A stretch of 64,000 nt of DNA from Promethearchaeota archaeon (lineage in GTDB: Archaea > Asgardarchaeota > Lokiarchaeia > Sigyniarchaeales > SOKP01). Numbering within the stretch: the first letter of the stretch is position 1; every line of letters starts with the position of its first letter. The position numbers were made by a program, and so were the translations under genes. Under the pieces are notes generated by a model. That model saw only the letters and a program-made list of their open reading frames with translations, was not told where the DNA came from and ran no database searches. Shown here piece after piece: positions 32,509 to 43,221 of this stretch. The stretch covers positions 64,001-128,000 of the forward strand of contig JAEOSU010000076.1 in NCBI GenBank assembly GCA_016840165.1, written 5' to 3'.

Positions 32509-33612
32509 TTAATATTTTGAAGGTTTTTTTGATTTTATTTTATATTTTGGTATTTCTTCGATTTTTCGTAATTGATTCTCAAAATCGCGTTTTTCTCTTA
32601 AAAATCGTTCTTTATCTCTTTCTAATTTACCTCTCTCTTTTTTAATTGTATTTTTTTCACTTTCAATGGTAATTTTTTCCTTTTCAATTTTAGCATAGTG
32701 ATTCTTTAAATTTTTTAGTTTTCTTTCTAAATCTTGAATATTTTGCTCTAATGAACGATATGTTCTTTCAGCTTTCGGAACTTTCTTATTTAATTCTTTC
32801 AGTTTTGCTTCTTCCTCTTTTCTAGATTTTTCTAGATTTCTTACCTCTCTATTAACATTATCTCTGAACTCTTCTAAATTAATCTTTTTCTTTTCAATAT
32901 CACGAGCTTTTAGGTTAATGTCTTTTTTCTTATACTTAATTTTATCTTTATATTCTTTTAGACGTCTCTTCTCATCTTCAATACGATTCCGTTCATCTGT
33001 GAGTTCTCGTTTCATATCATTAATATCATTATTAAGCATATCCTTCTCACTCTTTAATTGTTTGATCTCTTTTCTTAAGTCCATTAACTTGTCTTCGTGT
33101 TTTTCAATAGTACTCTCTAAAGCATTTTCCCTTCGTTCCATACCCGGTATTTTTGATTTAATCTCTTTAATCCGATCTTCTGTTTTAGCCTTTTCCTTCT
33201 GTAAATTGATTTTTTCATTATCTAAGTCATCTTTAATAGCATTTAACTTATCTTGATAACGTTTTAAATCATTACTTTTTTTATCTAATTCCTTTTCTTT
33301 AATTTGGAGTGTATTTTTATGTTGTTTTATATCATTTCTCATTGTTTCTATTTCATTTTTTAAATTATCGCGTTCCTTTAAGAGATTTCGAACTTCTAAT
33401 TCCTTTTGTTTTCTTTTCTTCTCAAGATCATCAATATCATCGCTATAATCTTCAATCTTCTTTAAAACTTTTTCCCATTCAATTTTTTCTTTAACTAATT
33501 TAGCTTGCTCATCTTTTATTTTTTTGAGTAATTTTTGATTTGTAATATTATCTATTTCATTTTGGGGTGTTTTTTCTCGAATTTGATATTTAGGAATAGG
33601 TTTATCGTTCAT
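32509..33612 (-). CDS. Long coiled-coil protein
   Basis: About 320 aa of K/E-rich heptads; no TM segment or ATPase motif. Confidence 0.8.
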   Translation of the reverse strand: MNDKPIPKYQIREKTPQNEIDNITNQKLLKKIKDEQAKLVKEKIEWEKVLKKIEDYSDDIDDLEKKRKQKELEVRNLLKERDNLKNEIETMRNDIKQHKNTLQIKEKELDKKSNDLKRYQDKLNAIKDDLDNEKINLQKEKAKTEDRIKEIKSKIPGMERRENALESTIEKHEDKLMDLRKEIKQLKSEKDMLNNDINDMKRELTDERNRIEDEKRRLKEYKDKIKYKKKDINLKARDIEKKKINLEEFRDNVNREVRNLEKSRKEEEAKLKELNKKVPKAERTYRSLEQNIQDLERKLKNLKNHYAKIEKEKITIESEKNTIKKERGKLERDKERFLREKRDFENQLRKIEEIPKYKIKSKKPSKY

Positions 33613-33785: not shown

Positions 33786-34196
33786 ATGAATTTTGAAGAT
33801 GAGGAGGAAGAATTCGATGAAGAATTCGATGAAGAATTTGATGAAGATCTGGACGAAGATTTGGATGAAGAGAGAGATTTTGAATTAAAAAAACCAACTC
33901 CAGAAGTTCTTGCAACTAAAACTCCAAAAGGTACCATTAGCTCGGAAGCAAAAAAGATTTCCGTATATCTAATGTCAACAATAGGGCCGGGGGAAAAGAA
34001 ACAAAAATTATTAATATATACTGGATATCAGATTAAGGATATCAAGGAAACAGTGGCTAATATATTTGGTTTAGACCCCTCTGATTTTCATTTATCTACA
34101 GGAGGAGTCACAATGGAGGAGGGATTAACGCTAAATGATTATAATGTTAATGATGGAGATGATATTTTGTTAATTCCGGCTAGCACTGCTGGCTAA
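33786..34196 (+). CDS. Ubiquitin-like protein 1 (acidic N-tail, mature C-terminus -PASTAG)
   Basis: Beta-grasp pattern IKDIKETVA..FHLSTGG..LNDYNVNDGDDILLIP ending Ala-Gly-stop; lies in the E1/E2/JAMM/RING locus. Confidence 0.85.
   Translation: MNFEDEEEEFDEEFDEEFDEDLDEDLDEERDFELKKPTPEVLATKTPKGTISSEAKKISVYLMSTIGPGEKKQKLLIYTGYQIKDIKETVANIFGLDPSDFHLSTGGVTMEEGLTLNDYNVNDGDDILLIPASTAG
33807..33866 (+). repeat. 12-bp tandem repeat x5 encoding (EEFD)3(EDLD)2
   Basis: gaagaattcgat gaagaattcgat gaagaatttgat gaagatctggac gaagatttggat. Confidence 0.85.
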
Positions 34197-34241
34197 ATTG
34201 TCAAAATATTTAATATTTAAAATCAATAAGATATTTTTAAT

Positions 34242-35024
34242 CTATTTTTTATTTCTTGGAATTAAAGCAATTTCATCATCATCATCAATATTATACTCCC
34301 TTATAAGGGAATTTTCATGTAATAATATTCCGCCAGAGGAGAGTAAAAAATCATCGAGATTATATCCAAAAAATACTGCTATTCTTTCTTTAAGATCTCT
34401 AATGAAATCTGATGATTCGATTATTAAAATTTTAGTTTTCTCTCCTGGTTCAACTAAGGACCTAACATAAACTCGTATTCTGTCTTGCATCCCTATTTTA
34501 TTTTTTGGGGGATAATAAATAATCTTTTTATTATTCTTAGCTTCCAACATAGATTCAATTAGGACTTTCCTCTCTTCAGCATCATAATATAATAATTCTC
34601 TGAGGAAAAATATCTTATCCATTTTAGATAGATCTAATATTTCTATCTTCTCTAATTCTTCTGGAATAAATAATGAAAAAATAAACTCATGAAGTTTTGG
34701 TATTTCTTCATATGAATCATCTGAATCAGCATAATCATCAATTAGAGGCATTGCTTCGAAATAATCATTTAAAAAAGCACTAGAAATTCCTTTATGTGGT
34801 TTTCTATTCAAAGGAATCTTCTTCTTTAAAATTAAATTATCGGGTTCTTTTTTAGATTCTATGATTGTATAGAGAGTAACACTAGGTAAAACAGCAACAC
34901 TACTTATAATTAGGATTGAATTTAGAAGGATATGATCTATATTAAAGAAAATAAAGAGAAGATAGATTAAAATAAAGAATATATAGAGAATGATTGTACC
35001 AAATAATAGATGCTTTAGTTTCAT
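34242..35024 (-). CDS. Two-TM membrane protein with C-terminal Ubl domain lacking a terminal Gly
   Basis: C-terminal PGEK..IRDLKE..FLLSSGG..EYNIDDDDEIALIPRNKK aligns with Ubl1 and Ubl2. Confidence 0.8.
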   Translation of the reverse strand: MKLKHLLFGTIILYIFFILIYLLFIFFNIDHILLNSILIISSVAVLPSVTLYTIIESKKEPDNLILKKKIPLNRKPHKGISSAFLNDYFEAMPLIDDYADSDDSYEEIPKLHEFIFSLFIPEELEKIEILDLSKMDKIFFLRELLYYDAEERKVLIESMLEAKNNKKIIYYPPKNKIGMQDRIRVYVRSLVEPGEKTKILIIESSDFIRDLKERIAVFFGYNLDDFLLSSGGILLHENSLIREYNIDDDDEIALIPRNKK

Positions 35025-35109
35025 GATTTTATTTTTAATACCTACTTCTAAATTTTAAATATAAATCTCTTAATATAAATTCCATTGGAATAAATTTGCA
35101 ATTTCTCTT

Positions 35110-35785
35110 TTATTCCTCATTGATTAATTTTCTAACCTCAAAATATTTGTCTTCATTTAAGCAAAATAATACTATTCTATTTTGTCTTCTAATGGTTATC
35201 AGTTGTAATTTTTGTAAAATCTTAAAATACTTTTTTATAGAATTATAATTTCTTTTTAGCCCATTTGCAATTTCGGTGATTTTAAATTCTTTTAAAGAAT
35301 TTTTCTGTATGAAACTTATTATTTCTTTGACGATACTTTGTTTTAAATAGAAATGTAATTCATCAAACTCAGGATTTAAATCAAATTTGAAAAATACTCG
35401 TTGATTTTCAAATTTTTTAGATCTTACAAATTGAAATTTCTCTAAACAAGATAAATGCCATAATACTTGATTACTTCCAATGTTTATTGCTTTCATAATC
35501 TCATTAATATTTGATGGTGTTTGTTTAATTAAATTAAAGATTTCATTTCTTACTGGATGTTCTATGATGTTATTCTTCATCAATTTAGTCCCAGGAATAA
35601 GGATTTTTTTTTTTAATAAGCTTCTTTATGATTTTTTCGATGCTATTTTTATTTATATTTGGGTTTAACTTTACCCTATTACTAATGAATAAGACGATAT
35701 CTTCAATTGAAAAGAATGGTTTCTTTTTTAGATATTCTTTAATTAAGTCAAAAACAATATCTTCGGCATAATTGGGGGATTTCAT
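35110..35785 (-). pseudogene. Winged-helix (ArsR-like, double wHTH) regulator split by a frameshift in an A11 tract
   Basis: ORFs 35585-35785 and 35110-35583 fuse in frame if one A is removed from 35604-35614 (..IKKKILIPGTKLMKNNIIEHPVR..); HTH NEIMKAINIGSNQVLWHLSCLEK. Confidence 0.7.
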
Positions 35786-36042
35786 TAGTGTATACTTCTA
35801 ATATGTTAGATGAAATGAATTTATTAATGATTTCTTTTATCTAAAATGTTATCTTTCAGTTCATATTAATTACTAACCATTTATTCAATTTATAAGTATA
35901 TTTTCTTAGATTAATAATGGTATTTATGTCTTTATTCAAGAATTTTCAAAATCATTCCAATTGGTTTTATAATATCATTTTAGCATGTTCTTAGTAAGTT
36001 TAAAAATAAACTTTCAAAAAATAAAAAAAAGAAGTGAAAAAA

Positions 36043-36378
36043 ATGAGTTTTGATAATGATTTTGATGAGGAATTGGAACCATTAAAGTCTAAAACGCCTA
36101 CAAGTAAAACACCTTCAGCAGGAAAGAAACTGACTCTATATTTTATGTCAACTATCGGTCCTGGTGAAAAGAAAGAAAAGTTAACCGTAAATGATGCTAA
36201 TCAAGTCAGTGATATTAAAGAAACCTTAGGAAATTTATACGGTCTTGACCCTGATGAATTTCATTTATCATCTGGTGGAGTTACAATGGATGAAAGTAAT
36301 CAATTAAAAGATTATAACGTAAATGATGGAGACGACATTCTTTTAATTCCTGCGAGTACGGCGGGTAGACTTATATAA
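36043..36378 (+). CDS. Ubiquitin-like protein 2 (pro-form, -PASTAG|RLI)
   Basis: Close paralog of Ubl1 (MSTIGPGEKK, DYNVNDGDDILLIPASTAG) with a 3-aa extension; directly upstream of E1. ATG 36043 (GTG 36034 in the track). Confidence 0.87.
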   Translation: MSFDNDFDEELEPLKSKTPTSKTPSAGKKLTLYFMSTIGPGEKKEKLTVNDANQVSDIKETLGNLYGLDPDEFHLSSGGVTMDESNQLKDYNVNDGDDILLIPASTAGRLI

Positions 36379-36400
36379 TTTTCTATATAATTTATAATAA

Positions 36401-36432
36401 GAAGGCTTTAGTCCTTCATTTATTTTTTTTTT
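36401..36432 (+). terminator. Short hairpin plus T10 tract between Ubl2 and E1
   Basis: GAAGG-ctttagt-CCTTC followed by T10 at 36423-36432. Confidence 0.4.
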
Positions 36433-36445
36433 ATTAATAATTAAG

Positions 36446-37678
36446 GTGATAGGATTGGAGAAAAATTCAGATTTTTTTGGTAAAGAACTGTCAGTGGAGG
36501 AACGAGACTTATATGACCGCCAATTTCGCCTTGAAGGTTGGTCACAAAAGGTAGTAAAAAATTCGAGAGTCCTAATAGCAGGTGTAGGAGGTTTAGGTTG
36601 TGAAACTGCTAAAAATTTAGCTATGTTAGGTGTGGGTCATATCGATCTTGTTGATTTAGATATAATTGAACATTCTAATTTAAACCGACAAATACTTTTT
36701 ACTGGTGCTCAAATAGGAGAATCCAAAGCGATTGTAGCTGCTAGAAAATTGAGGGAAGTAAATCCAAATATAACTATAAAAGGGTATTCTACCTCTTTAG
36801 AACGATTAAATCCTGAAATTTATCAAGCCGTTGATATTGTGGTTGGTGGTCTTGATTCGATGATTGCTCGTTTAAACTTAAATGCGCAGTGTATAAGATT
36901 TAGAAAACCTTTAGTTGATGGGGGCGTATCTGGTTATCATGGGCATATCTATACCGTGTTTCCTTATAAAAATGCCTGCTATGAGTGTAACCCATTACCT
37001 ATTGGCGAAAGTGATGAAATGGCAGCTTGTACTGTAGTTGGAATTCCCCGGAAAAGAATTCACTGTGTTTTTAAAGGGGATATGGCTTTTAGAGAAAAAT
37101 TTGATAGAGATCCAAATCCAAAAGATATGAATGATATAAAATATATTCAAAAAGCGGCAAATGAATTAGTAAATAAACATAATTTCTTACCCGAATACAC
37201 TGAAGATGATATTGTAAAAATTATTGATAGACATGATCCAGGATTAATTACAGTTAATGCCGTTATTTCTGCTTTACAGTCTCATGAGACTATAAAGATT
37301 ATTCATTGGAAAAAAGGGCATAAAGGATTAGGAGCGCCCATACAGGATTATGTTATCTTTAATGGTATTACCATGAAATTATATCATATTGAAAAAAAAA
37401 GAAACCCAGAATGTTCTCAATGTGGAAGAAATGCTCGACGTGTTATTATAAAAATGAAAGCACAGTCACCTTGCATGAATATTATAAAAATTTTAAATCA
37501 TCATGGGTATAACTTAGAGGAAAATTTTGAACCCATTATTACACTATTGGATTTCAATGATATACAAGTTATTGATTTAGAAAAGAATGCTAGAGAAAAT
37601 GATTTACGTAATTTAGAATTTTTAATTGTAGCTGGGTTTGTTGGTGGAGAAATTTATGTAACACTAAAATTAAAATGA
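36446..37678 (+). CDS. Ubiquitin-like activating enzyme E1 (UBA2/UBA3-like)
   Basis: YDRQ, GVGGLG, DLDIIEHSNLNRQ, Zn sites CYEC and CSQC, catalytic-Cys motif ACTVVGIPRKRIHC, C-terminal UFD-sized domain. Confidence 0.92.
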   Translation: MIGLEKNSDFFGKELSVEERDLYDRQFRLEGWSQKVVKNSRVLIAGVGGLGCETAKNLAMLGVGHIDLVDLDIIEHSNLNRQILFTGAQIGESKAIVAARKLREVNPNITIKGYSTSLERLNPEIYQAVDIVVGGLDSMIARLNLNAQCIRFRKPLVDGGVSGYHGHIYTVFPYKNACYECNPLPIGESDEMAACTVVGIPRKRIHCVFKGDMAFREKFDRDPNPKDMNDIKYIQKAANELVNKHNFLPEYTEDDIVKIIDRHDPGLITVNAVISALQSHETIKIIHWKKGHKGLGAPIQDYVIFNGITMKLYHIEKKRNPECSQCGRNARRVIIKMKAQSPCMNIIKILNHHGYNLEENFEPIITLLDFNDIQVIDLEKNARENDLRNLEFLIVAGFVGGEIYVTLKLK

Positions 37679-37764
37679 ATTTATGATCAAAATAAATATT
37701 TATAATAATTGTCTTATCAAAAACTATAAGAATTGAAAATTAAAAAAAAAGGGGTTGAAAAAAA

Positions 37765-38292
37765 TTGAGTTTAAGAAGTAGTCGTATTTCTCGAGATTTT
37801 GCGGGTTTAAAAAAGATGCTTAAGAATGGAACCATGGTTCAATTAAAACCATTTAATCCAAAAAAAAAAAGTATTGATCATTTAGCTATTACTATCAGAG
37901 GTCCCAAAGGAACAGCTTATGCAGGGGGTCTTTTTAAATTAGAAATGAAATTCCCTGCTCAATATCCTAAGCAGCCTCCATTTGTGAGACTCCATACACC
38001 AATTTGGCATCCAAATTTTTGGCCTAAACCAAGTGAATATAAAGGACAAAGAAATATCTGTTTAGCATTAGTTGATCCTTCTTTAGTTGGTAAAAAAGGA
38101 GGTTGGAGTCCTTCGAAAACAGCAGTCACTATAGTGCAAGCAATAATTGCTATGTTAAATACACGCGGAAAATATGTTAATCCAACAGATGTATTTAATA
38201 AAAAAGCAGCAATCGAAATGATAAAGGATCAAAAATTCTTCGAGAAAAAAGTTAAAAACCTAGTAAAGAAGTATGCAAAAGAAAAGTGGTGA
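37765..38292 (+). CDS. Ubiquitin-conjugating enzyme E2 (UBC fold)
   Basis: GPKGTAYAGGLFKL..FPAQYP.QPP, TPIWHPN, NICL, WSPS. Confidence 0.94.
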   Translation: MSLRSSRISRDFAGLKKMLKNGTMVQLKPFNPKKKSIDHLAITIRGPKGTAYAGGLFKLEMKFPAQYPKQPPFVRLHTPIWHPNFWPKPSEYKGQRNICLALVDPSLVGKKGGWSPSKTAVTIVQAIIAMLNTRGKYVNPTDVFNKKAAIEMIKDQKFFEKKVKNLVKKYAKEKW

Positions 38293-38299
38293 AAATAAT

Positions 38300-39106
38300 A
38301 TGAAAAATGATGAAATTCCTGATGATCCAATTAGAGAAGCCATTAAACAAAAAATAAAAAACAAAATCAAAAAAGAATTACTTAAAGAAATATATTCGGA
38401 ATTACAATTAGAAGAAGAAATTACAAACGAGATAACCACTGAAATAATTAGTGATCCTTTATTAGAGCATTCCGAGATCAATAAAGCTAATCTTGAACCG
38501 ATTCCTTCAGAGATCGTAGAAACTTCTGCTAGTAATGGTAAATTTAAAGCACCTATAGCTATAAATGTAAAATCCATTCTAAAAATTGCCAGTCACGCAT
38601 TAAAATATGCTCATTCAAAAATCCCAAGAGAAGAATGGGTTGAGGTTATTGGCTTACTTGCTGGAACATTTGATAAAATTCATAACGTTTTATATATTGA
38701 AGATGTTTATCCAATGGGACATGGTAATGCTGTGTATGCGGAAATTAAAGATTATAAAAATTATGTAAGAGCTTTTAAAGATATCAAAAAAAGTAGATTG
38801 TTTATATGTGGCTGGTATCACTCTCATCCATCCTATGGATGCTTTATGTCTAGAGAAGATTTAGGTACCCAATCGCGGTATCAAACATTATGGGATAAAG
38901 CAATAGCACTTGTAATTGATCCTTATCAGATAAATGGAAAATCATTGGGTTTTGAAATTTATCGTGCGAATTTTAAAAAACGAGAGTGGTTTTCTGTACC
39001 TTTTGAGATTAATGGAAATTTAGATGTGGGAATGTTACCTGAAATTTTGGATTTTATGAACCCAATTATAGAGGGGAAGGCTGCTTATTTAGAATATGAT
39101 GAATAA
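38300..39106 (+). CDS. JAMM/MPN+ isopeptidase (Rpn11/CSN5-like)
   Basis: EVIGLL, GWYHSHPSYGCFMSREDL, ALVIDP. ATG 38300 preferred over 38273, which overlaps E2. Confidence 0.93.
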   Translation: MKNDEIPDDPIREAIKQKIKNKIKKELLKEIYSELQLEEEITNEITTEIISDPLLEHSEINKANLEPIPSEIVETSASNGKFKAPIAINVKSILKIASHALKYAHSKIPREEWVEVIGLLAGTFDKIHNVLYIEDVYPMGHGNAVYAEIKDYKNYVRAFKDIKKSRLFICGWYHSHPSYGCFMSREDLGTQSRYQTLWDKAIALVIDPYQINGKSLGFEIYRANFKKREWFSVPFEINGNLDVGMLPEILDFMNPIIEGKAAYLEYDE

Positions 39107-39126
39107 AATCAAAGGTTGATTAATCT

Positions 39127-40266
39127 ATGGTAAAAAAGAAAAATTTGATAATCCTTCTTTTTGTCTTAATTGGTTTTGTCCATGGGTTGATCTCAATTTC
39201 ATTAAATATTTTTCTAACTTGGGTATTTATCGGTTTGTGGATATTTTTCATAATAAAAATTTTCGAAAACATAAAACAACATCGCGAATTTAATTCACCT
39301 TATAATACGGCATTTTTTGTTATTCTTCCTTTATTTATTGGGATCTTTTATTCTATGTGGGGCTACTATACGAATTTATTTGGTGAAAATCTCTTTATGA
39401 ACTCCAATATCTATTTTAGTTTATGGAGCTTAATTTTTGGATTTCCATTTGTTTTATATGGATCTTATTCATTATATCGTTGCTTTAAAAAGTATAATGT
39501 GATCTATTTTGGGAGAAGAGCTGTAAAGGCTAAAGTGGTTGGATATCTACTATCATTCTCAATAATTTTTGGTATTATTCTTTATTGGATAATTTTTTAC
39601 TCTATTATTGAGTTTTTTAATTATTTATTAATTCCTTTACATTTCTCTTTAGATTTAAATCTTTTAATCATTTTTATATTGACTATTCTAATTCTTATTT
39701 TATTTGGATTTTTAAATCCTCAAAGACGATTATCTCCTTTAACTCGAGAATATATAGCACAGCGTACTCGAAGAATTAATGCTCTCACAAGACCTAGTAT
39801 TCAAAATCAGAGAGTAAAGACAACTAACCGATCAACTTCTCCCTCAACTAGAACAGTGACCCGATCAACTACTACTTCCTATAGATCCTCAAGGATCACT
39901 CCAAAATCTAAAAGCCATGCGAGGAGAACAACAAGAACCACTGAAACTAAAAAGACAAAAACTAATCTAAAAATTCGAAATATAAATGCTTATAAGCCAA
40001 AAGCGGCATTTCTGACAGAAGAAGATTTCAAATGCATTTTCTGTTTTAATTTGCCAAAATTTCCCGAAGATAAAGGTAGAGGGATCATTTTATGCCCTAA
40101 TTGTAGATATCCTTCCCACGCAGATGAGTTTAAAGACTGGTTAAAAACTTCAAATTTATGTTCACGTTGTAGCGCACCCATTCCCTCTAGCTTTAGAAGA
40201 AATCCAAGAATTATTAGTATAAAAAATTATATTTCTATCTATAAACAAATTTTAAAAAAAACATAA
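39127..40266 (+). CDS. Polytopic membrane protein with C-terminal RING-like domain (candidate E3 ligase)
   Basis: About 6 TM segments, an S/T/R-rich linker, then CIFC-x16-CPNC-x4-H-x2-E-x3-W-x6-CSRC. Confidence 0.78.
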   Translation: MVKKKNLIILLFVLIGFVHGLISISLNIFLTWVFIGLWIFFIIKIFENIKQHREFNSPYNTAFFVILPLFIGIFYSMWGYYTNLFGENLFMNSNIYFSLWSLIFGFPFVLYGSYSLYRCFKKYNVIYFGRRAVKAKVVGYLLSFSIIFGIILYWIIFYSIIEFFNYLLIPLHFSLDLNLLIIFILTILILILFGFLNPQRRLSPLTREYIAQRTRRINALTRPSIQNQRVKTTNRSTSPSTRTVTRSTTTSYRSSRITPKSKSHARRTTRTTETKKTKTNLKIRNINAYKPKAAFLTEEDFKCIFCFNLPKFPEDKGRGIILCPNCRYPSHADEFKDWLKTSNLCSRCSAPIPSSFRRNPRIISIKNYISIYKQILKKT

Positions 40267-40298: not shown

Positions 40299-41258
40299 TT
40301 ATTTATTTGTTCCAATAATTCTTCTTAATTCTCCAACCGTAGTTTTTAATTCTGAATATACATTATGGGGATGGATGGATTCATAACTTTCAATAGTGAA
40401 TTTAATTTTAGACTGATCCTCCAAATTTGGAAAATCACTCAGGATGAATCTTTTTGCCATTTGTCTGACTACATCCTCAGAAAAAAGTGGATTTAGATGA
40501 GCTGTTCGAACTAGCCTTGCCTCTTCTGGTCTTTTTAGAACTGACTGCATTTTTCCCGACATTGAACCTTCTATGATATCAATTATATCTAAAACATCAA
40601 TTTTATGATTGTTTAAATCTTTAATCTGCACAATAATAGTTCCTTTTGATCGCTGATTATGAGAACTAAAAGGTAAGATATTGAGGAGTTTCTTAATATC
40701 TTCTTCCCGCAGATTGATATCTCTTCTATTTTTAATAATTTCTTCAGCATACTCTTGGCTCATTTCTTTTGCACAAGGGCAAACCGTCATACCAACGGCA
40801 CTTGCCCCAATATAGTAGTTAAAATCAATCTCTCCTGATTCATCCTTACGGGCTTTTACAAAAGAACTTATATCATATGACTTTTGGATATTTCTTTGTT
40901 GTTCATCTTTAGTTTGAACGACTATTTTGCCTTCAAGTTTTACATAGACTTTTCTGGTATAAGGATGCTTTTTGAGAAGTTCTCGTGCAATTCTATCTCC
41001 TACCACTTCTACAGATGGTGTTGGTTTGAAAATTACCTCATTTATGATCTCTTCGATAGTTTCAGAGGTGCGAGACATATGAATCCCTCGTTGTTTGGCA
41101 GGAAGAGATATCAGTGCAGAGATCTTAGGATAAAAGGAGTAGCGCTTATTTTCTTGAATGATCTCGACTTTTTTTTCGACACCAACAATCCCAACTTTAT
41201 CGATAGGAATATCGATTTTTGAGCCAGAATTCTGTAAATCTTTTTTAAAGTGGCTAAT
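40299..41258 (-). CDS. mptA: GTP cyclohydrolase IV (MptA/FolE2 family); probable ATT start
   Basis: GMTVCPCA, SHNQR, LKRPEE, NPLFSED, ESIHPH. The conserved N-terminus (DLQ..IDKVGI..LPAKQRGIHMSR) lies upstream of the track ATG 41078 in the same frame. Confidence 0.9.
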   Translation of the reverse strand: MSHFKKDLQNSGSKIDIPIDKVGIVGVEKKVEIIQENKRYSFYPKISALISLPAKQRGIHMSRTSETIEEIINEVIFKPTPSVEVVGDRIARELLKKHPYTRKVYVKLEGKIVVQTKDEQQRNIQKSYDISSFVKARKDESGEIDFNYYIGASAVGMTVCPCAKEMSQEYAEEIIKNRRDINLREEDIKKLLNILPFSSHNQRSKGTIIVQIKDLNNHKIDVLDIIDIIEGSMSGKMQSVLKRPEEARLVRTAHLNPLFSEDVVRQMAKRFILSDFPNLEDQSKIKFTIESYESIHPHNVYSELKTTVGELRRIIGTNK

Positions 41259-41396
41259 TAAGTATCACTAACTTAAAATTATTTATCTATCTAATAAAAG
41301 TAGATATCTAATATAAAAAATATTAATGACCAAGTTTGTTCTACTAAAATTTATAATTTAATTTATATCATTACTATGCTTATCTAATTTAAAAAA

Positions 41397-42566
41397 ATGC
41401 CTGAAAAATATCTCTATTGTAAATTTGGGTTAATAGGAGAGAATTTAGAATTAAAACAAAATATAAATTTGTCATTTGACAAAGAAGGAAAAATAACTGA
41501 GTTAAAATTTGATGAGATCGAAGCAGACATTAATTTTGATAGAACACGAGAAAATTATGTTATGATTCCAGGATTGATAAATTCTCATATTCATATTGGA
41601 GATAGCTTTGCTAAAGAGAGAGGTCATAATAAAAGATTAATTGAAGTTGTAAGTCCTCCCAATGGCATTAAGCATCTATTGTTGCGGGAAACTTCCGACA
41701 CCAAAAAAATTAAAGGAATTAAATATGCTATACATGAGATGATATCGAATGGAATAACCTATTTTATAGACTTTAGAGAAAATGGAATTAAGGGGATTGA
41801 ACTTTTACAAAGAGCACTAAAAGATGAGAGTATTAAATGTTTGATATTCGGCCGTTTTGATCAAATAGATGATCTACAGGAAGTATTTTACAAATCAGAT
41901 GGAATTGGATTATCAAGTTATCATCACCTAACCGATGATGTAAAGTTAGAGCTTAGAAGAATGAAATCCCGTCTGTTTAAAAAGATAGCTTGTCATGTTG
42001 CTGAACTCAATCATGAACCTCTCCTTTTAAATGAAATATTAGAGGATGCTTTAGTCGATATAATTGTACACGGAACACAATTAAAAATTCCCGATCTAAG
42101 AAAAATTCAAGAAAAAAAAATTAAAGTTGTGCTATGTCCGAGGAGTAATGGATATTTTGGACTCGGATATCCTCCAATTAAAGAGATGTTGGAGTTAAGT
42201 ATTCCTTTTTCATTAGGAACTGATAATGTTATGGTTAATAATTTAAACTTATTTGAGGAAATGCGTTATTTATATTATACTGCAAGAAATCAAATAAACG
42301 AAGAGGATTTGGGCTATTTTAATGCTAAAAATATTTTTAAAATGGTTACTATTAATGCAGCTAAAAACTTCGACATTGAATCAGAAGTAGGGTCAATATC
42401 CTTAGGTAAAGCAGCTGATTTAGTTATGATTGATTTAAATAATCCAAATTTTTACGTTAATAAATTAGATAAAGCTGAGTTCTTTTCATTACTTCTTCAT
42501 AGGACTAATGTAAGGAATATCAACCAAGTATATATTGGAGGAAAGCTAATTTATGAAAGCGACTGA
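41397..42566 (+). CDS. Metal-dependent amidohydrolase (SsnA/TRZ-like deaminase family)
   Basis: PGLINSHIHIGD, HVAE, VHG, CPRSN, LGTDN, GKAADLV. Confidence 0.87.
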   Translation: MPEKYLYCKFGLIGENLELKQNINLSFDKEGKITELKFDEIEADINFDRTRENYVMIPGLINSHIHIGDSFAKERGHNKRLIEVVSPPNGIKHLLLRETSDTKKIKGIKYAIHEMISNGITYFIDFRENGIKGIELLQRALKDESIKCLIFGRFDQIDDLQEVFYKSDGIGLSSYHHLTDDVKLELRRMKSRLFKKIACHVAELNHEPLLLNEILEDALVDIIVHGTQLKIPDLRKIQEKKIKVVLCPRSNGYFGLGYPPIKEMLELSIPFSLGTDNVMVNNLNLFEEMRYLYYTARNQINEEDLGYFNAKNIFKMVTINAAKNFDIESEVGSISLGKAADLVMIDLNNPNFYVNKLDKAEFFSLLLHRTNVRNINQVYIGGKLIYESD

Positions 42567-43221
42567 TAAACCATATATCATTTTAAGTGCCGCTATGACC
42601 ATCGATGGTAAAATAGCTTCTAAAGAAGGAGACACTGACATATCAGATGATAAAGATTGGAGGGAAGTCCATAAACTCAGAACTAAAGTAGATGCAATAA
42701 TGGTTGGGAAAAATACAATATTGGCTGATAATCCAAAACTCCATATTAAATTTTATTCCCATTCTGGTTATTATCGTATCGTAGTAGATAGTAATTTAGT
42801 AACGCCAATAGACTCTAATGTTATTACATATCAACTAGACTTATATCCTACTATTATTTGTACTACTGAAAATGTACCTATTGATAAAATTAGGGAATAT
42901 GAAGCAAAAAATGTTAAAATTATTACTTCTGGTCGAAAGGAGCACGTTGATATAAATGCTTTATTACTAAAATTACATCAAATGGGTATTAAGTCAATTC
43001 TATTAGAGGGGGGAGGAAATTTAAATTGGAGTTTTATAAAAGAAAACTTAGTGGATGAAATTCGATTGACAATCGCTCCTTGGATTATTGGAGGGCAAAA
43101 TGCGATTAGTTTGGTTGAGGGAGATGGCTTCTCGCAAATGAAGAATGCACCTCGGTATCATCTATCTAAAGTTAAAACAAGAAATAATTATGTAAAATTG
43201 AAATTTTTGAAATTGACATGA
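42553..43221 (+). CDS. 2,5-diamino-6-(ribosylamino)-4(3H)-pyrimidinone 5'-phosphate reductase (RibD_C only; Rib7/ArfC type)
   Basis: AMTIDGKIA, DAIMVG.NT...DNP.L, LLEGGG, VDE; no deaminase domain. Confidence 0.9.
   Translation: MKATDKPYIILSAAMTIDGKIASKEGDTDISDDKDWREVHKLRTKVDAIMVGKNTILADNPKLHIKFYSHSGYYRIVVDSNLVTPIDSNVITYQLDLYPTIICTTENVPIDKIREYEAKNVKIITSGRKEHVDINALLLKLHQMGIKSILLEGGGNLNWSFIKENLVDEIRLTIAPWIIGGQNAISLVEGDGFSQMKNAPRYHLSKVKTRNNYVKLKFLKLT

Follow-up and report, generated by a model that had tools for sequence, protein, structure and literature searches.

Does this locus encode a working ubiquitin-like conjugation system and, if so, is its modifier ubiquitin or a family of its own? 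From the window, a stretch of 64,000 nucleotides of Promethearchaeota DNA, we consider it probable that the genes make up a working archaeal ‘eukaryote-type’ ubiquitin-like conjugation system that uses its own family of modifiers. A sequence-only reading had drawn attention to the locus, and all the gene positions that it gave were confirmed. The genes are as follows.

32509–33612, minus strand: coiled-coil protein, 367 aa, Lys/Glu-rich, divergent from Ubl1
33786–34196, plus strand: Ubl1, 136 aa, ubiquitin-like modifier ending ILLIPASTAG-stop
34242–35024, minus strand: TM-Ubl, 260 aa, membrane-anchored Ubl paralog ending IPRNKK, without Gly
35110–35583, minus strand: winged-helix protein, 157 aa, with two winged-helix DNA-binding domains
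35585–35785, minus strand: 66-aa ORF without assigned function, lying upstream of the winged-helix gene in the same orientation
36043–36378 (alternative start 36034), plus strand: Ubl2, ubiquitin-like modifier ending ILLIPASTAG-RLI-stop
36446–37678, plus strand: E1 activating enzyme, 410 aa, ThiF-type
37765–38292, plus strand: E2 conjugating enzyme, 175 aa, UBC fold
38273–39106, plus strand: Rpn11-like JAMM/MPN+ metalloprotease with intact motif
39127–40266, plus strand: polytopic protein of ∼6 TM helices with a RING-like zinc domain (TM-RING), the probable E3

Both soluble tags are ubiquitin-family proteins by sequence profile, and not Ufm1, Atg8 or Rad60-SLD (Pfam). Against the Pfam ubiquitin model PF00240, whose cut-off is 25.4 bits, Ubl2 scored above the cut-off at 29.9 bits and Ubl1 slightly below it at 24.5 bits, while the Rad60-SLD score for the tags, 20.8 bits, fell below the cut-off of 23.8. 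Their cores are 67% identical. Ubl1 has a long acidic N-tail before its beta-grasp core, and a 12-bp repeat (5.4 copies, 33807–33871) codes for its EEFD/EDLD run; in Ubl2 the tail MSFDNDFDEELEPLKSKTPTSKTPS precedes the beta-grasp core, and its orthologs place the start codon at the ATG at 36043. The acidic tails reported earlier were found in both proteins, rich also in Lys, Thr and Pro, and a psi-x-x-K-T-P motif is present in the Ubl2 tail of 61/61 orthologs. The claim that both soluble Ubls end in PASTAG holds for Ubl1, where a stop follows directly; Ubl2 continues with RLI. From sequence, Ubl1 would be made in mature form and Ubl2 as a short precursor.

In both tags conservation reaches ...A-S-[T/I/V]-A-G and ends exactly there, with 0–6 variable residues beyond, the pattern that marks a C-terminal Gly as processed and reactive. 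Orthologs in the Ubl1 position end in IPAS[T/I/V]AG followed by 0–6 residues, those in the Ubl2 position have a stop directly after AG in 42 cases, and all 847 relatives of Ubl2 (76–97% identity) carry the AG end.

The set of Ubl, E1, E2, JAMM and RING-type proteins had been called complete, and domain families with intact catalytic motifs were indeed found for every step. The E1 (ThiF 1.2e-59, Pfam) has a nucleotide loop at G46–G51, two structural CxxC pairs (C178/C181, C323/C326) and a catalytic Cys195 whose stretch, AAC195TVVGIP, aligns with the catalytic-Cys stretch of SAE2, GCTIRNTP. Its best solved relatives are SAE2/UBA2 (6.7e-39), UBA1 (6e-37) and UBA3 (1.4e-35), with UBA5 at only 7e-17. 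The E2 (UQ_con 9.8e-26, Pfam) carries H82-P83-N84 and a catalytic Cys99 flanked on both sides by lineage-specific inserts; its solved relatives include UBE2R/G/T/N, UBE2F and UBC9 at ∼1e-14 to 1e-11. In the JAMM protein (JAB 2.3e-13, Pfam) the motif E121, H183, H185, S193, D196 is intact behind a low-complexity N-extension of ∼95 aa; among solved structures the protein is closest to the Rpn11-like protease of Caldiarchaeum (6fjv, 4.5e-15) and to Rpn11/PSMD14 (2e-14). Because this ORF overlaps the E2 gene by 20 nt, its true start may be a later ATG. Neither UBA1/2/3-type E1s nor JAMM proteases usually act on tags with a penultimate Ala, which counts against the proposed Ala-Gly conjugation.

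The last gene encodes about six TM helices with both termini inside, a basic Ser/Thr/Arg-rich linker and a cytoplasmic C-terminal zinc domain. The protein has no Pfam family, and its RING-like domain (residues about 299–352, window 40021–40182) matches no Pfam RING model; none of its 370 relatives carries a name, and a protein-language search with the TM part (residues 1–200) found nothing. Cys and His supply only seven ligands of the domain, the sixth place being taken by Glu or Asp (C303, C306, C323, C326, H331, E334 or D333, C345, C348); all of these fall among the invariant columns of the alignment, and W338 is likewise invariant. Among the structures that best match the AF2 model of the domain (pLDDT 73.8), almost every one is a RING or U-box domain, although the matches are weak in absolute terms (Foldseek E ≥ 0.015; VIA Z ≤ 5.0); HRD1, gp78 and Pex RING domains are among them without being the best, and every kind of RING matches equally. 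Co-folding with the E2 scored 0.66, as compared with 0.04 for the best control; 58 of the 80 solved complexes and 2 of the 110 mismatched pairs attained this mark. The runs shared at least 97% of their contacts, partner pLDDT was at least 91, and the interface is canonical, with helix 1, loop 4 and loop 7 of E2 facing I304–N308, W338 and the last zinc loop of the RING. The high score may arise because the program has memorised the many E2–RING complexes already solved. The modelling supports a RING/U-box fold for the C-terminal domain, and we regard the TM-RING protein as the probable E3 of the system.

The genes on the opposite strand include a second membrane protein. TM-Ubl scores 31.7 bits against PF00240 (Pfam), and runs from two N-terminal TM helices through a disordered linker and a helical domain to a C-terminal beta-grasp, modelled by AF2 with helices at 3–26 and 31–45 and the beta-grasp at 182–256. 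Its best Foldseek matches are ubiquitin (TM 0.85–0.92, rmsd 1.1–2.2 Å), and hydropathy with K/R counts places the C-terminal part in the cytoplasm. It is kept in 67 loci (median identity 51%) and, judged by its RNKK end without Gly, appears non-conjugatable. The sequence-only reading left out the two conserved minus-strand genes between the Ubl genes. One, the winged-helix gene, is kept at its position in 60 loci, and its product matches HTH_5 (ArsR) at 23.5 bits against a cut-off of 22, with HTH_45 and HVO_A0114 slightly below theirs (Pfam); it is probably a local regulator. The other, the 66-aa ORF, is kept in 61 loci (median identity 62%) and had no significant Pfam match. The coiled-coil gene adjoins Ubl1 in 55 of 80 loci. 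Its product, for which Pfam gave only sub-threshold matches to coiled coils, carries psi-x-x-K-T-P at residue 11 (IREKTP) and the variant IKSKKP at its C-terminus; 52/53 orthologs have the motif among their first 32 aa and 50/53 among their last 32 aa, and none has it in the middle. We consider the coiled-coil protein a candidate partner or substrate of the Ubl system.

A test of synteny had been put forward, and E1, E2, JAMM and TM-RING proved colinear on one strand in 73 of the 73 related Lokiarchaeia loci that hold all four genes. The Ala-Gly modifiers always adjoin these genes in Lokiarchaeia. The arrangement is far beyond chance. Within Lokiarchaeia, gene order by itself is weak evidence of functional linkage, because flanking housekeeping genes are also syntenic there. 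Contigs of Helarchaeota and Hodarchaeales provide stronger evidence, because there the flanks differ; the five-gene order after Ala-Gly tags recurs on them and in another lineage. Of 400 Asgard genomes, 200 encode TM-RING. Median identities are 89% for E2 (77 loci, the highest of the region), 84% for Ubl2 and 79% for E1, and 49% for the flanking amidohydrolase; purifying selection on the operon is strong.

Is this, then, simply the ordinary Asgard ubiquitin system, its tags equivalent to ubiquitin and its Ala-Gly end and N-tails products of neutral lineage drift? Pfam names the tags ‘ubiquitin’, and the parts list corresponds to that of the Caldiarchaeum Ub/E1/E2/srfp/Rpn11 operon (PMC5654768). 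Moreover, the cluster as such is already known: the Asgard Ub–ESCRT study of Hatano et al. counts it as a discrete Ub genomic region of Lokiarchaeota and includes the E2 ortholog A0A0F8VF99 in its E2 alignment (PMC9192718; see also PMC5654768). The literature on Lokiarchaeum, however, uses as its Gly-Gly ‘Ub’ the protein Lokiarch_37670, with the C-terminus ...ATQAGG-ISIIH (PMC9192718, Supplementary Data 1), which was bound by Loki UEV proteins in yeast two-hybrid (PMC9192718). The host genome encodes the ortholog of that protein in another gene, on contig C4, ending ...ATQAGGA, and contig C53 holds a second canonical E1/E2 pair, 39–43% identical. In addition, the AG end of the tags shows no variation in at least three classes of Asgard archaea, and a direct reading of the alignment shows Ub positions I44, R72 and R74 matched with Ser, Ala and Thr, so that ubiquitin-type recognition surfaces are not kept. 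These observations support the Ala-Gly tags as a family apart from the Gly-Gly ‘Loki ubiquitin’ of published ESCRT work, in agreement with the separate family and dedicated cascade first proposed, and we think equivalence to ubiquitin unlikely. The text of PMC9192718 was found to discuss neither the Ala-Gly tags nor the membrane RING nor TM-Ubl, and no description of Ala-Gly tag ends with a membrane-built ligase was found in the searchable literature.

Still less probable, in our judgement, is that the tags are joined to a membrane lipid, in the manner of ATG8-PE, or to very few fixed partners instead of many membrane proteins, so that the membrane ‘E3’ marks a lipidation site or anchors a structural assembly with the coiled-coil neighbour. 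A lone terminal Gly, like that of ATG8 and ATG12, and the membrane location of both ligase and Ubl paralog would fit such a role, and the psi-x-x-K-T-P motif common to tag tails and coiled-coil termini would suit a few dedicated acceptor sites. Yet the E2 is a canonical UBC enzyme with the HPN of lysine aminolysis and resembles neither ATG3 nor ATG10, the E1 belongs to the UBA1/2/3 and not the ATG7 type (3rui, only 2.2e-08), the cluster includes no lipid-handling gene, and the genome-wide frequency of psi-x-x-K-T-P is that of chance. That the Ubls serve as non-covalent adaptors or carry sulfur, without protein conjugation, is very improbable. Beta-grasp proteins with ThiF-type partners do carry sulfur in many prokaryotes, and the TM-Ubl paralog clearly functions although its end is not reactive. 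But sulfur transfer has no use for a catalytic-Cys E2, a RING-like domain or a JAMM protease, the E1 contains an insert with the catalytic Cys and lacks a rhodanese domain (Pfam), and a separate MoeB-like E1 of 246 aa is encoded on contig C4.

For the preferred reading, a conjugation system with its own Ala-Gly modifiers, we infer the following course. Ubl1 would expose its C-terminal Ala-Gly as made, and Ubl2 after removal of RLI, most likely by the linked Rpn11-like JAMM; E1 would adenylate the terminal Gly, load the tag onto Cys195 and hand it on to Cys99 of E2. The cytoplasmic RING-like domain would then bind E2 and help to move the tag onto lysines of proteins located in the cytoplasmic membrane or at its surface, substrates that we assume from the location of the ligase. 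The main job of the JAMM protease would be to take tags off again; deconjugation is its likelier conserved role because most orthologous tags need no trimming. TM-Ubl would probably act as a membrane adaptor or decoy, and the winged-helix protein would probably regulate the locus. An ERAD-like membrane quality control, as proposed at first, is speculation by analogy from the two membrane-anchored proteins.

Eukaryotic pathways with membrane-embedded RING ligases include Hrd1, with the Ubl-domain membrane proteins Herp/Usa1, as well as gp78, MARCH and Pex2/10/12. The locus shares with them a polytopic protein with a cytoplasmic RING, a soluble UBC E2 and a membrane protein bearing a putatively non-conjugatable Ubl domain, but it has no Cdc48 link and its archaeal host has no ER; the resemblance, an analogy, is one of layout only. 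UFM1 (-VG) and ATG8/ATG12 (-FG/-WG) are single-Gly modifiers. The analogy with UFM1 drawn in the sequence-only reading survives as regards the one terminal Gly but not the enzymes, since E1 and E2 are of UBA1/2/3 and UBC type and not UBA5/UFC1, nor ATG7/ATG3, and the tags are ubiquitin-family by profile. SUMO has a disordered Lys-bearing N-tail with psi-K-x-E consensus sites; the tag N-tail similarly carries conserved lysines in a short motif, found also on the neighbouring coiled-coil protein.

The Lokiarchaeal ‘Ub region’ comes from the same organism group and shares the E2 ortholog, whereas the ‘Ub’ tested there was the Gly-Gly type encoded away from the operon (PMC9192718). The closest known system is that of Candidatus Caldiarchaeum subterraneum, whose operon (Ub, E1-like, E2-like, srfp, Rpn11-like JAMM) has been reconstituted in vitro, with trimming of pro-ubiquitin and deconjugation by its JAMM protease demonstrated (PMC5654768, PMC6043591). 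Both bring the same five functions together, with a catalytic-Cys-domain E1 and a UBC-fold E2 with HPN; the Caldiarchaeum JAMM is the closest solved relative of ours, the modifier can start as a short precursor, and the RING is predicted to sit on E2 helix 1, loop 4 and loop 7 via Ile/Phe and Trp, the counterparts of which in Caldiarchaeum, I30 and W58, have been mutated and tested (PMC5654768, PMC6043591). In contrast to the Gly-Gly modifier of Caldiarchaeum, those of the locus are two Ala-Gly paralogs with a conserved acidic/K-T-P N-tail; the RING is the C4-H-(E/D)-C2 C-terminal domain of a ∼6-TM protein as against the C3H2C3 srfp; and TM-Ubl, the winged-helix regulator and the coiled-coil neighbour are extra conserved partners. 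We conclude that the cluster, which the literature already lists as the Lokiarchaeal ‘Ub region’, represents a variant of the known Caldiarchaeum-type operon that has not been described before.

All of the ORFs that the sequence-only reading had placed at 33786-40266 of the window, whose G+C content is ∼30%, were found there. The region also holds genes for a winged-helix protein and a 66-aa ORF, both of which were absent from that reading's gene list. The features are as follows.

33786-34196, + strand: Ubl1, a soluble ubiquitin-like tag (ORF)
34242-35024, − strand: TM-Ubl, the membrane-anchored Ubl paralog (ORF)
35110-35583, − strand: winged-helix protein
35585-35785, − strand: 66-aa ORF
36043-36378, + strand: Ubl2, the second soluble tag, from the ATG used as in its orthologs; a GTG at 36034 opens the ORF
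36446-37678, + strand: E1 (ORF)
37765-38292, + strand: E2 (ORF)
38273-39106, + strand: JAMM protein (ORF)
39127-40266, + strand: TM-RING, a 379-aa membrane protein and the candidate E3 (ORF)

The end of the E2 gene and the JAMM ORF share 20 nt (38273-38292). The first ∼95 residues of the JAMM ORF are of low complexity and poorly conserved, and its true start may be a later ATG, at residue 10. No Cdc48 or proteasome gene was found in the locus. Downstream, at 40299-43221, lie a gene for a FolE2-type GTP cyclohydrolase (PF02649, 3.8e-44) and an amidohydrolase/reductase pair; since these genes are syntenic across Lokiarchaeia, the conserved gene order of the class extends beyond the operon.

Both soluble Ubls had been described as ending in PASTAG. 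This is right for Ubl1 (PASTAG-stop) and wrong for Ubl2 (PASTAG-RLI-stop). A Gly-Gly end, whether direct or produced by trimming, is absent, both tags being of the Ala-Gly type. The tag end was compared among the best 120 Ubl2 relatives and, for 80 related loci, in both tag genes; conservation reaches ...IP-A-S-[T/I/V]-A-G and ends there. The motif [AS]S[TIV]AG is present in all of those 120 relatives and in nearly all locus orthologs, and is followed most commonly by a stop codon, otherwise by 1-6 unrelated residues (YF, RLI, YI, CFE). That conservation halts at AG is the classic mark of a C-terminal glycine that must be free.

Against PF00240 (Pfam, cut-off 25.4), Ubl2 scored 29.9 bits and Ubl1 24.5 bits, just below the cut-off; TM-Ubl was likewise assigned to ubiquitin, and ubiquitin chains were matched by the tag in phmmer. 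Judged from their sequences, the tags can be placed in the ubiquitin family as beta-grasp modifiers, the structural match being predicted for the domain of their paralog TM-Ubl. In the alignment, read directly, the LRLRGG tail of ubiquitin is replaced by PASTAG and Ile44 by Ser, so that the surfaces by which ubiquitin is recognized by its enzymes are not kept in the tags. PDB entries 8hm1-3 and 8ypt (‘putative ubiquitin’), considered as Asgard structures, are Bacteroides ubiquitin homologues. The acidic run EEFD/EDLD of Ubl1 is encoded by a 12-bp tandem repeat, GAAGAATTCGAT, of which 5.4 copies occupy 33807-33871; since the length of this run varies among orthologs, the tail of Ubl1 is probably changing in length by repeat slippage. 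In one related genome (locus L073, 6185-6716), the regular Ubl2 is preceded by an insertion that holds a further gene of Ubl2 type (PASTAG-stop) and a short E2-like piece; this looks like a local duplication.

More than 847 relatives of Ubl2, 76-97% identical to it, were found. Where a source is named, it is a MAG of Promethearchaeota, Hermod-, Hod- or Odinarchaeota, or a sediment metagenome; that of one relative, LCGC14_1459110, is a marine sediment metagenome. A wider profile search, over 1.8 billion representatives, showed that Ala-Gly-ended relatives exist well outside the operon family, with ends such as ...IPTSTAGGF in Helarchaeota and ...IPHSTAG in Hodarchaeales, and also yielded tandem Ala-Gly Ubl forms. 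Some larger Asgard proteins (P0251, P0253, P0257, P0259, P0261, P0263, P0274, P0285, P0287, P0329; P0265; P0307, P0373) also finish in an Ala-Gly Ubl domain; of these, one family has a zinc-ribbon at its N-terminus (YNCPKCK...), another is a HerA-like ATPase and a third joins CDC48_N to VWA. By way of the Ubl end, these proteins could be attached to targets themselves.

All three enzymes keep their catalytic features intact. E1 matches ThiF (Pfam, 1.2e-59 over residues 25-324). The nucleotide loop and both CxxC pairs are present in it, as is Cys195, which aligns on the catalytic-Cys stretch of SAE2 (SUMO E1 subunit 2). Among solved structures, E1 is nearest to UBA2, UBA1 and UBA3 (1e-39 to 1e-35), with UBA5 (7e-17), MoeB and ATG7 far behind. 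E2 matches UQ_con (Pfam, 9.8e-26) and was assigned to the UBC fold; across 22 sequences, neither H82-P83-N84 nor Cys99 varies. A UFM1-like system does not fit this locus: the tags match ubiquitin, Pfam listed no Ufm1 family match, E1 is nearer to UBA2/UBA1/UBA3 than to UBA5, and E2, unlike UFC1, has HPN. The JAMM protein matches JAB (Pfam, 2.3e-13) and carries the full motif (E121, H183, H185, S193, D196); its closest solved relative is the Caldiarchaeum Rpn11-like enzyme 6fjv, and proteasomal Rpn11 is also close. For the Caldiarchaeum enzyme, both trimming of pro-ubiquitin and removal of ubiquitin from substrates have been shown (PMC6043591, PMC5654768). Because trimming is unnecessary in most tag orthologs, the conserved job of the JAMM protein would more likely be deconjugation, and the removal of tails secondary.

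The candidate ligase, TM-RING, consists of about six hydrophobic helices, followed by a strongly basic Ser/Thr/Arg linker and a conserved C-terminal domain; the Lys/Arg-rich loops place both of its ends in the cytoplasm. It belongs to no Pfam family and matched no Pfam RING model at E ≤ 0.1. In 27-41 TM-RING sequences C303, C306, C323, C326, H331, D333, E334, W338, C345 and C348 are invariant. Seven Cys/His of the zinc domain are thus invariant, and position six is taken by the invariant Glu334, with Asp333 beside it, in place of an eight-ligand set; the spacing between ligands 4 and 5 is 4, as compared with 2-3 in the RING cross-brace. Glu334 is kept in the copies from Helarchaeota and another lineage, and Asp333 varies there. 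A sequence search against solved structures gave only an insignificant match, to the C-terminal zinc domain of IFT144 (E 0.17), and residues 1-200, the TM part, drew no usable hit in a protein-atlas feature search.

Structure prediction is suggestive of a RING-like fold. The AF2 model of the C-terminal domain (pLDDT 73.8) returned top lists in two independent searches, Foldseek and VIA, that were almost entirely RING/U-box, among them Ring1b, RNF4, TRIM, CHIP, Prp19, gp78, HRD1 and Pex RINGs; the scores of these model-based matches were weak (Foldseek E ≥ 0.015; VIA Z ≤ 5.0), as is expected for a zinc domain of 60 residues. In co-folding, E2 with the RING-like domain reached a predicted score of 0.66, as compared with 0.04 for the best control; this mark is reached by 58/80 solved complexes and by 2/110 mismatched pairs. 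At least 97% of contacts agreed between runs, and the pLDDT of the partners was at least 91. The interface, as modelled, sets helix 1, loop 4 and loop 7 of E2 against I304-N308, W338 and the last zinc loop and is of the textbook type; since E2-RING complexes are abundant in the PDB, the high score may stem from resemblance to them, and the co-fold, a model, shows likeness and is not proof of binding. From the position of the candidate ligase, target proteins are likely to be tagged at the membrane.

In the AF2 model of TM-Ubl, two TM helices are followed by a disordered linker, then by a helical domain and finally by a beta-grasp, which is predicted to superpose on ubiquitin with a TM-score of 0.85-0.92 and an rmsd of 1.1-2.2 Å. 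The protein ends in IPRNKK, and its conjugation is therefore impossible.

Relatives of TM-RING were found in 137 species-level genomes, and 80 loci were fetched. E1, E2, JAMM and TM-RING are colinear in 73/73 loci that have all four genes, and in 55 loci the coiled-coil gene, TM-Ubl, the regulator and Ubl2 are present as well. For E2 the loci have a median identity of 89% with the window gene, for Ubl2 84% and for E1 79%; TM-RING (58%), TM-Ubl (51%) and the flanking amidohydrolase (49%) are lower. The identity of E2, Ubl2 and E1 lies so far above that of the flank as to indicate unusually strong constraint on the core enzymes. Beyond Lokiarchaeia, the order Ala-Gly tag, E1, E2, JAB and a ∼390-aa polytopic protein with the same zinc domain recurs in Helarchaeota, in Hodarchaeales and on other contigs, with different flanks. 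Housekeeping flank genes are likewise syntenic within Lokiarchaeia, so this recurrence is the better evidence for functional linkage. In total, TM-RING was found in 200 of 400 Asgard genomes; several families of other classes often have it (26/31, 19/22 and 8/12) and, among the same 400 genomes, others lack it (0/19, and 0/89 across three families).

A second ubiquitin-like set exists in the same genome. A fourth ubiquitin-family gene, of Gly-Gly type, lies on contig C4 (44374-44565, − strand; L001 1486-1746; L098) and ends ...ATQAGGA (...VITVMATQAGGA). By direct reading it is near-identical to its ortholog Lokiarch_37670 (...ATQAGG-ISIIH), which served as ‘Ub’ in the study of Asgard ubiquitin and ESCRT (PMC9192718, Supplementary Data 1). 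Around the place where it should start, the frame lacks ATG, GTG and TTG alike (KKITQYRF..., as compared with MTQYRF in the Loki protein). A MoeB-like E1 of 246 aa stands ∼5 kb away, beside Roadblock/LC7 and LSM genes, with an LRR protein adjacent. Contig C53 (L097 2037-10363) carries a second canonical E1 of 527 aa, with an adenylation domain 43% identical to that of the window E1 and the same catalytic-Cys motif, and close to it, on the opposite strand, a second E2 of 169 aa (39% identical). This pair adjoins a 1643-aa MIT + TPR protein. MIT domains bind ESCRT-III in eukaryotes, and with such a neighbour the C53 pair may serve the Gly-Gly Ub as its cascade and provide the ESCRT link. The proposal that the locus encodes a separate modifier family with its own cascade thus gains support from gene content, namely the Gly-Gly Ub on C4 and the E1/E2 pair on C53.

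The tags share a lysine motif with the coiled-coil protein encoded beside them (32509-33612, − strand). In the latter, psi-x-x-K-[T/S]-P occurs within the first 32 residues in 52/53 orthologs and within the last 32 residues in 50/53, there in 1-4 tandem copies (IKSKTPSIKTKTPS...KY), and never, among the 53 orthologs, within the ∼300 Lys-rich residues between the ends; the copy in the window has IREKTP at the N-terminus and a variant, IKSKKP, at the C-terminus. The motif is also present in the tails of 61/61 Ubl2-type and 45/53 Ubl1-type orthologs, and Ubl-fusion proteins have K-S-K-T-P directly ahead of the beta-grasp. It is a real, locus-specific feature shared by the tags and their coiled-coil neighbour; hypothetically, psi-x-x-K-T-P would be an acceptor-lysine consensus. 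As a genome-wide substrate finder the K-T-P motif was rejected, because its loose form occurs 57 times, approximately the chance number (a rough estimate from residue frequencies), and its strict form is limited to Ubl2 and a single site within a folded flavoprotein; these counts mark no proteome-wide substrate set.

Clusters of this type are already known. The Caldiarchaeum operon (Ub, E1-like, E2-like, srfp and Rpn11-like) has been reconstituted (PMC5654768, PMC6043591), a Lokiarchaeum E1-like protein appears in the cluster survey of that work, and a discrete ‘Ub region’ has been described in 29 Lokiarchaeota genomes, with an ortholog of the window E2 aligned (Hatano et al., PMC9192718). The Ala-Gly end, the membrane RING and the membrane Ubl are mentioned in no paper that we found in the literature searched, which excludes most subscription journals; on Ala-Gly or other non-diglycine Asgard Ubls, an Asgard membrane E3 or a link to ERAD it gave general statements only. 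As for prior characterization as the standard Asgard ubiquitin, it does not apply to the tags, since the Loki Ub that has been studied is a different gene; the cluster itself had already been catalogued. What the sequence-only reading had found is real, and its interpretation was partly right.

Membrane ubiquitin tagging, as in ERAD, endosomal sorting and peroxisomal import, is regarded as a eukaryotic elaboration. Here the only ligase candidate of the system is an integral membrane RING protein, and the tag differs from the Gly-Gly ubiquitin studied so far; if the system works as proposed, Asgard archaea already ran two parallel Ubl pathways, one of them membrane-bound. Searches for K-epsilon-GG remnants, the usual kind, would miss modification by an Ala-Gly tag. 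With small parts that occur in hundreds of genomes, some of them from relatives of cultured strains, the system makes the origin both of membrane-linked ubiquitylation and of diversity among modifiers directly testable. A much more extended scheme, which we consider rather unlikely as a whole, would make the Ala-Gly tag, E1/E2/JAMM, the six-helix RING ligase and the membrane-anchored Ubl a second, Asgard-wide and membrane-dedicated Ubl pathway, a prokaryotic forerunner of the eukaryotic membrane-embedded RING ligase pathways of ERAD, MARCH or peroxisomal type. Lysines would be picked in it through psi-x-x-K-T-P read by E2, as Ubc9 reads psi-K-x-E, with the N-tail of the tag as chain-forming site and the coiled-coil neighbour as built-in substrate.

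A role in ERAD-type quality control, suggested by analogy, would be speculation. In layout only, the locus is like Hrd1 with Herp/Usa1: in both, a RING ligase that spans the membrane several times goes with a soluble E2 of UBC type and with a membrane protein whose Ubl domain is dead. This likeness is silent on common descent; the RINGs of HRD1 and gp78 do turn up when the modelled TM-RING domain is compared with known structures, with no preference over other RINGs. The locus differs from the reconstituted Caldiarchaeum system in its candidate E3: there the E3, srfp, is a small soluble RING-H2 protein, and here the sole RING-like domain forms the C-terminal end of a protein of 379 aa with about six TM helices.
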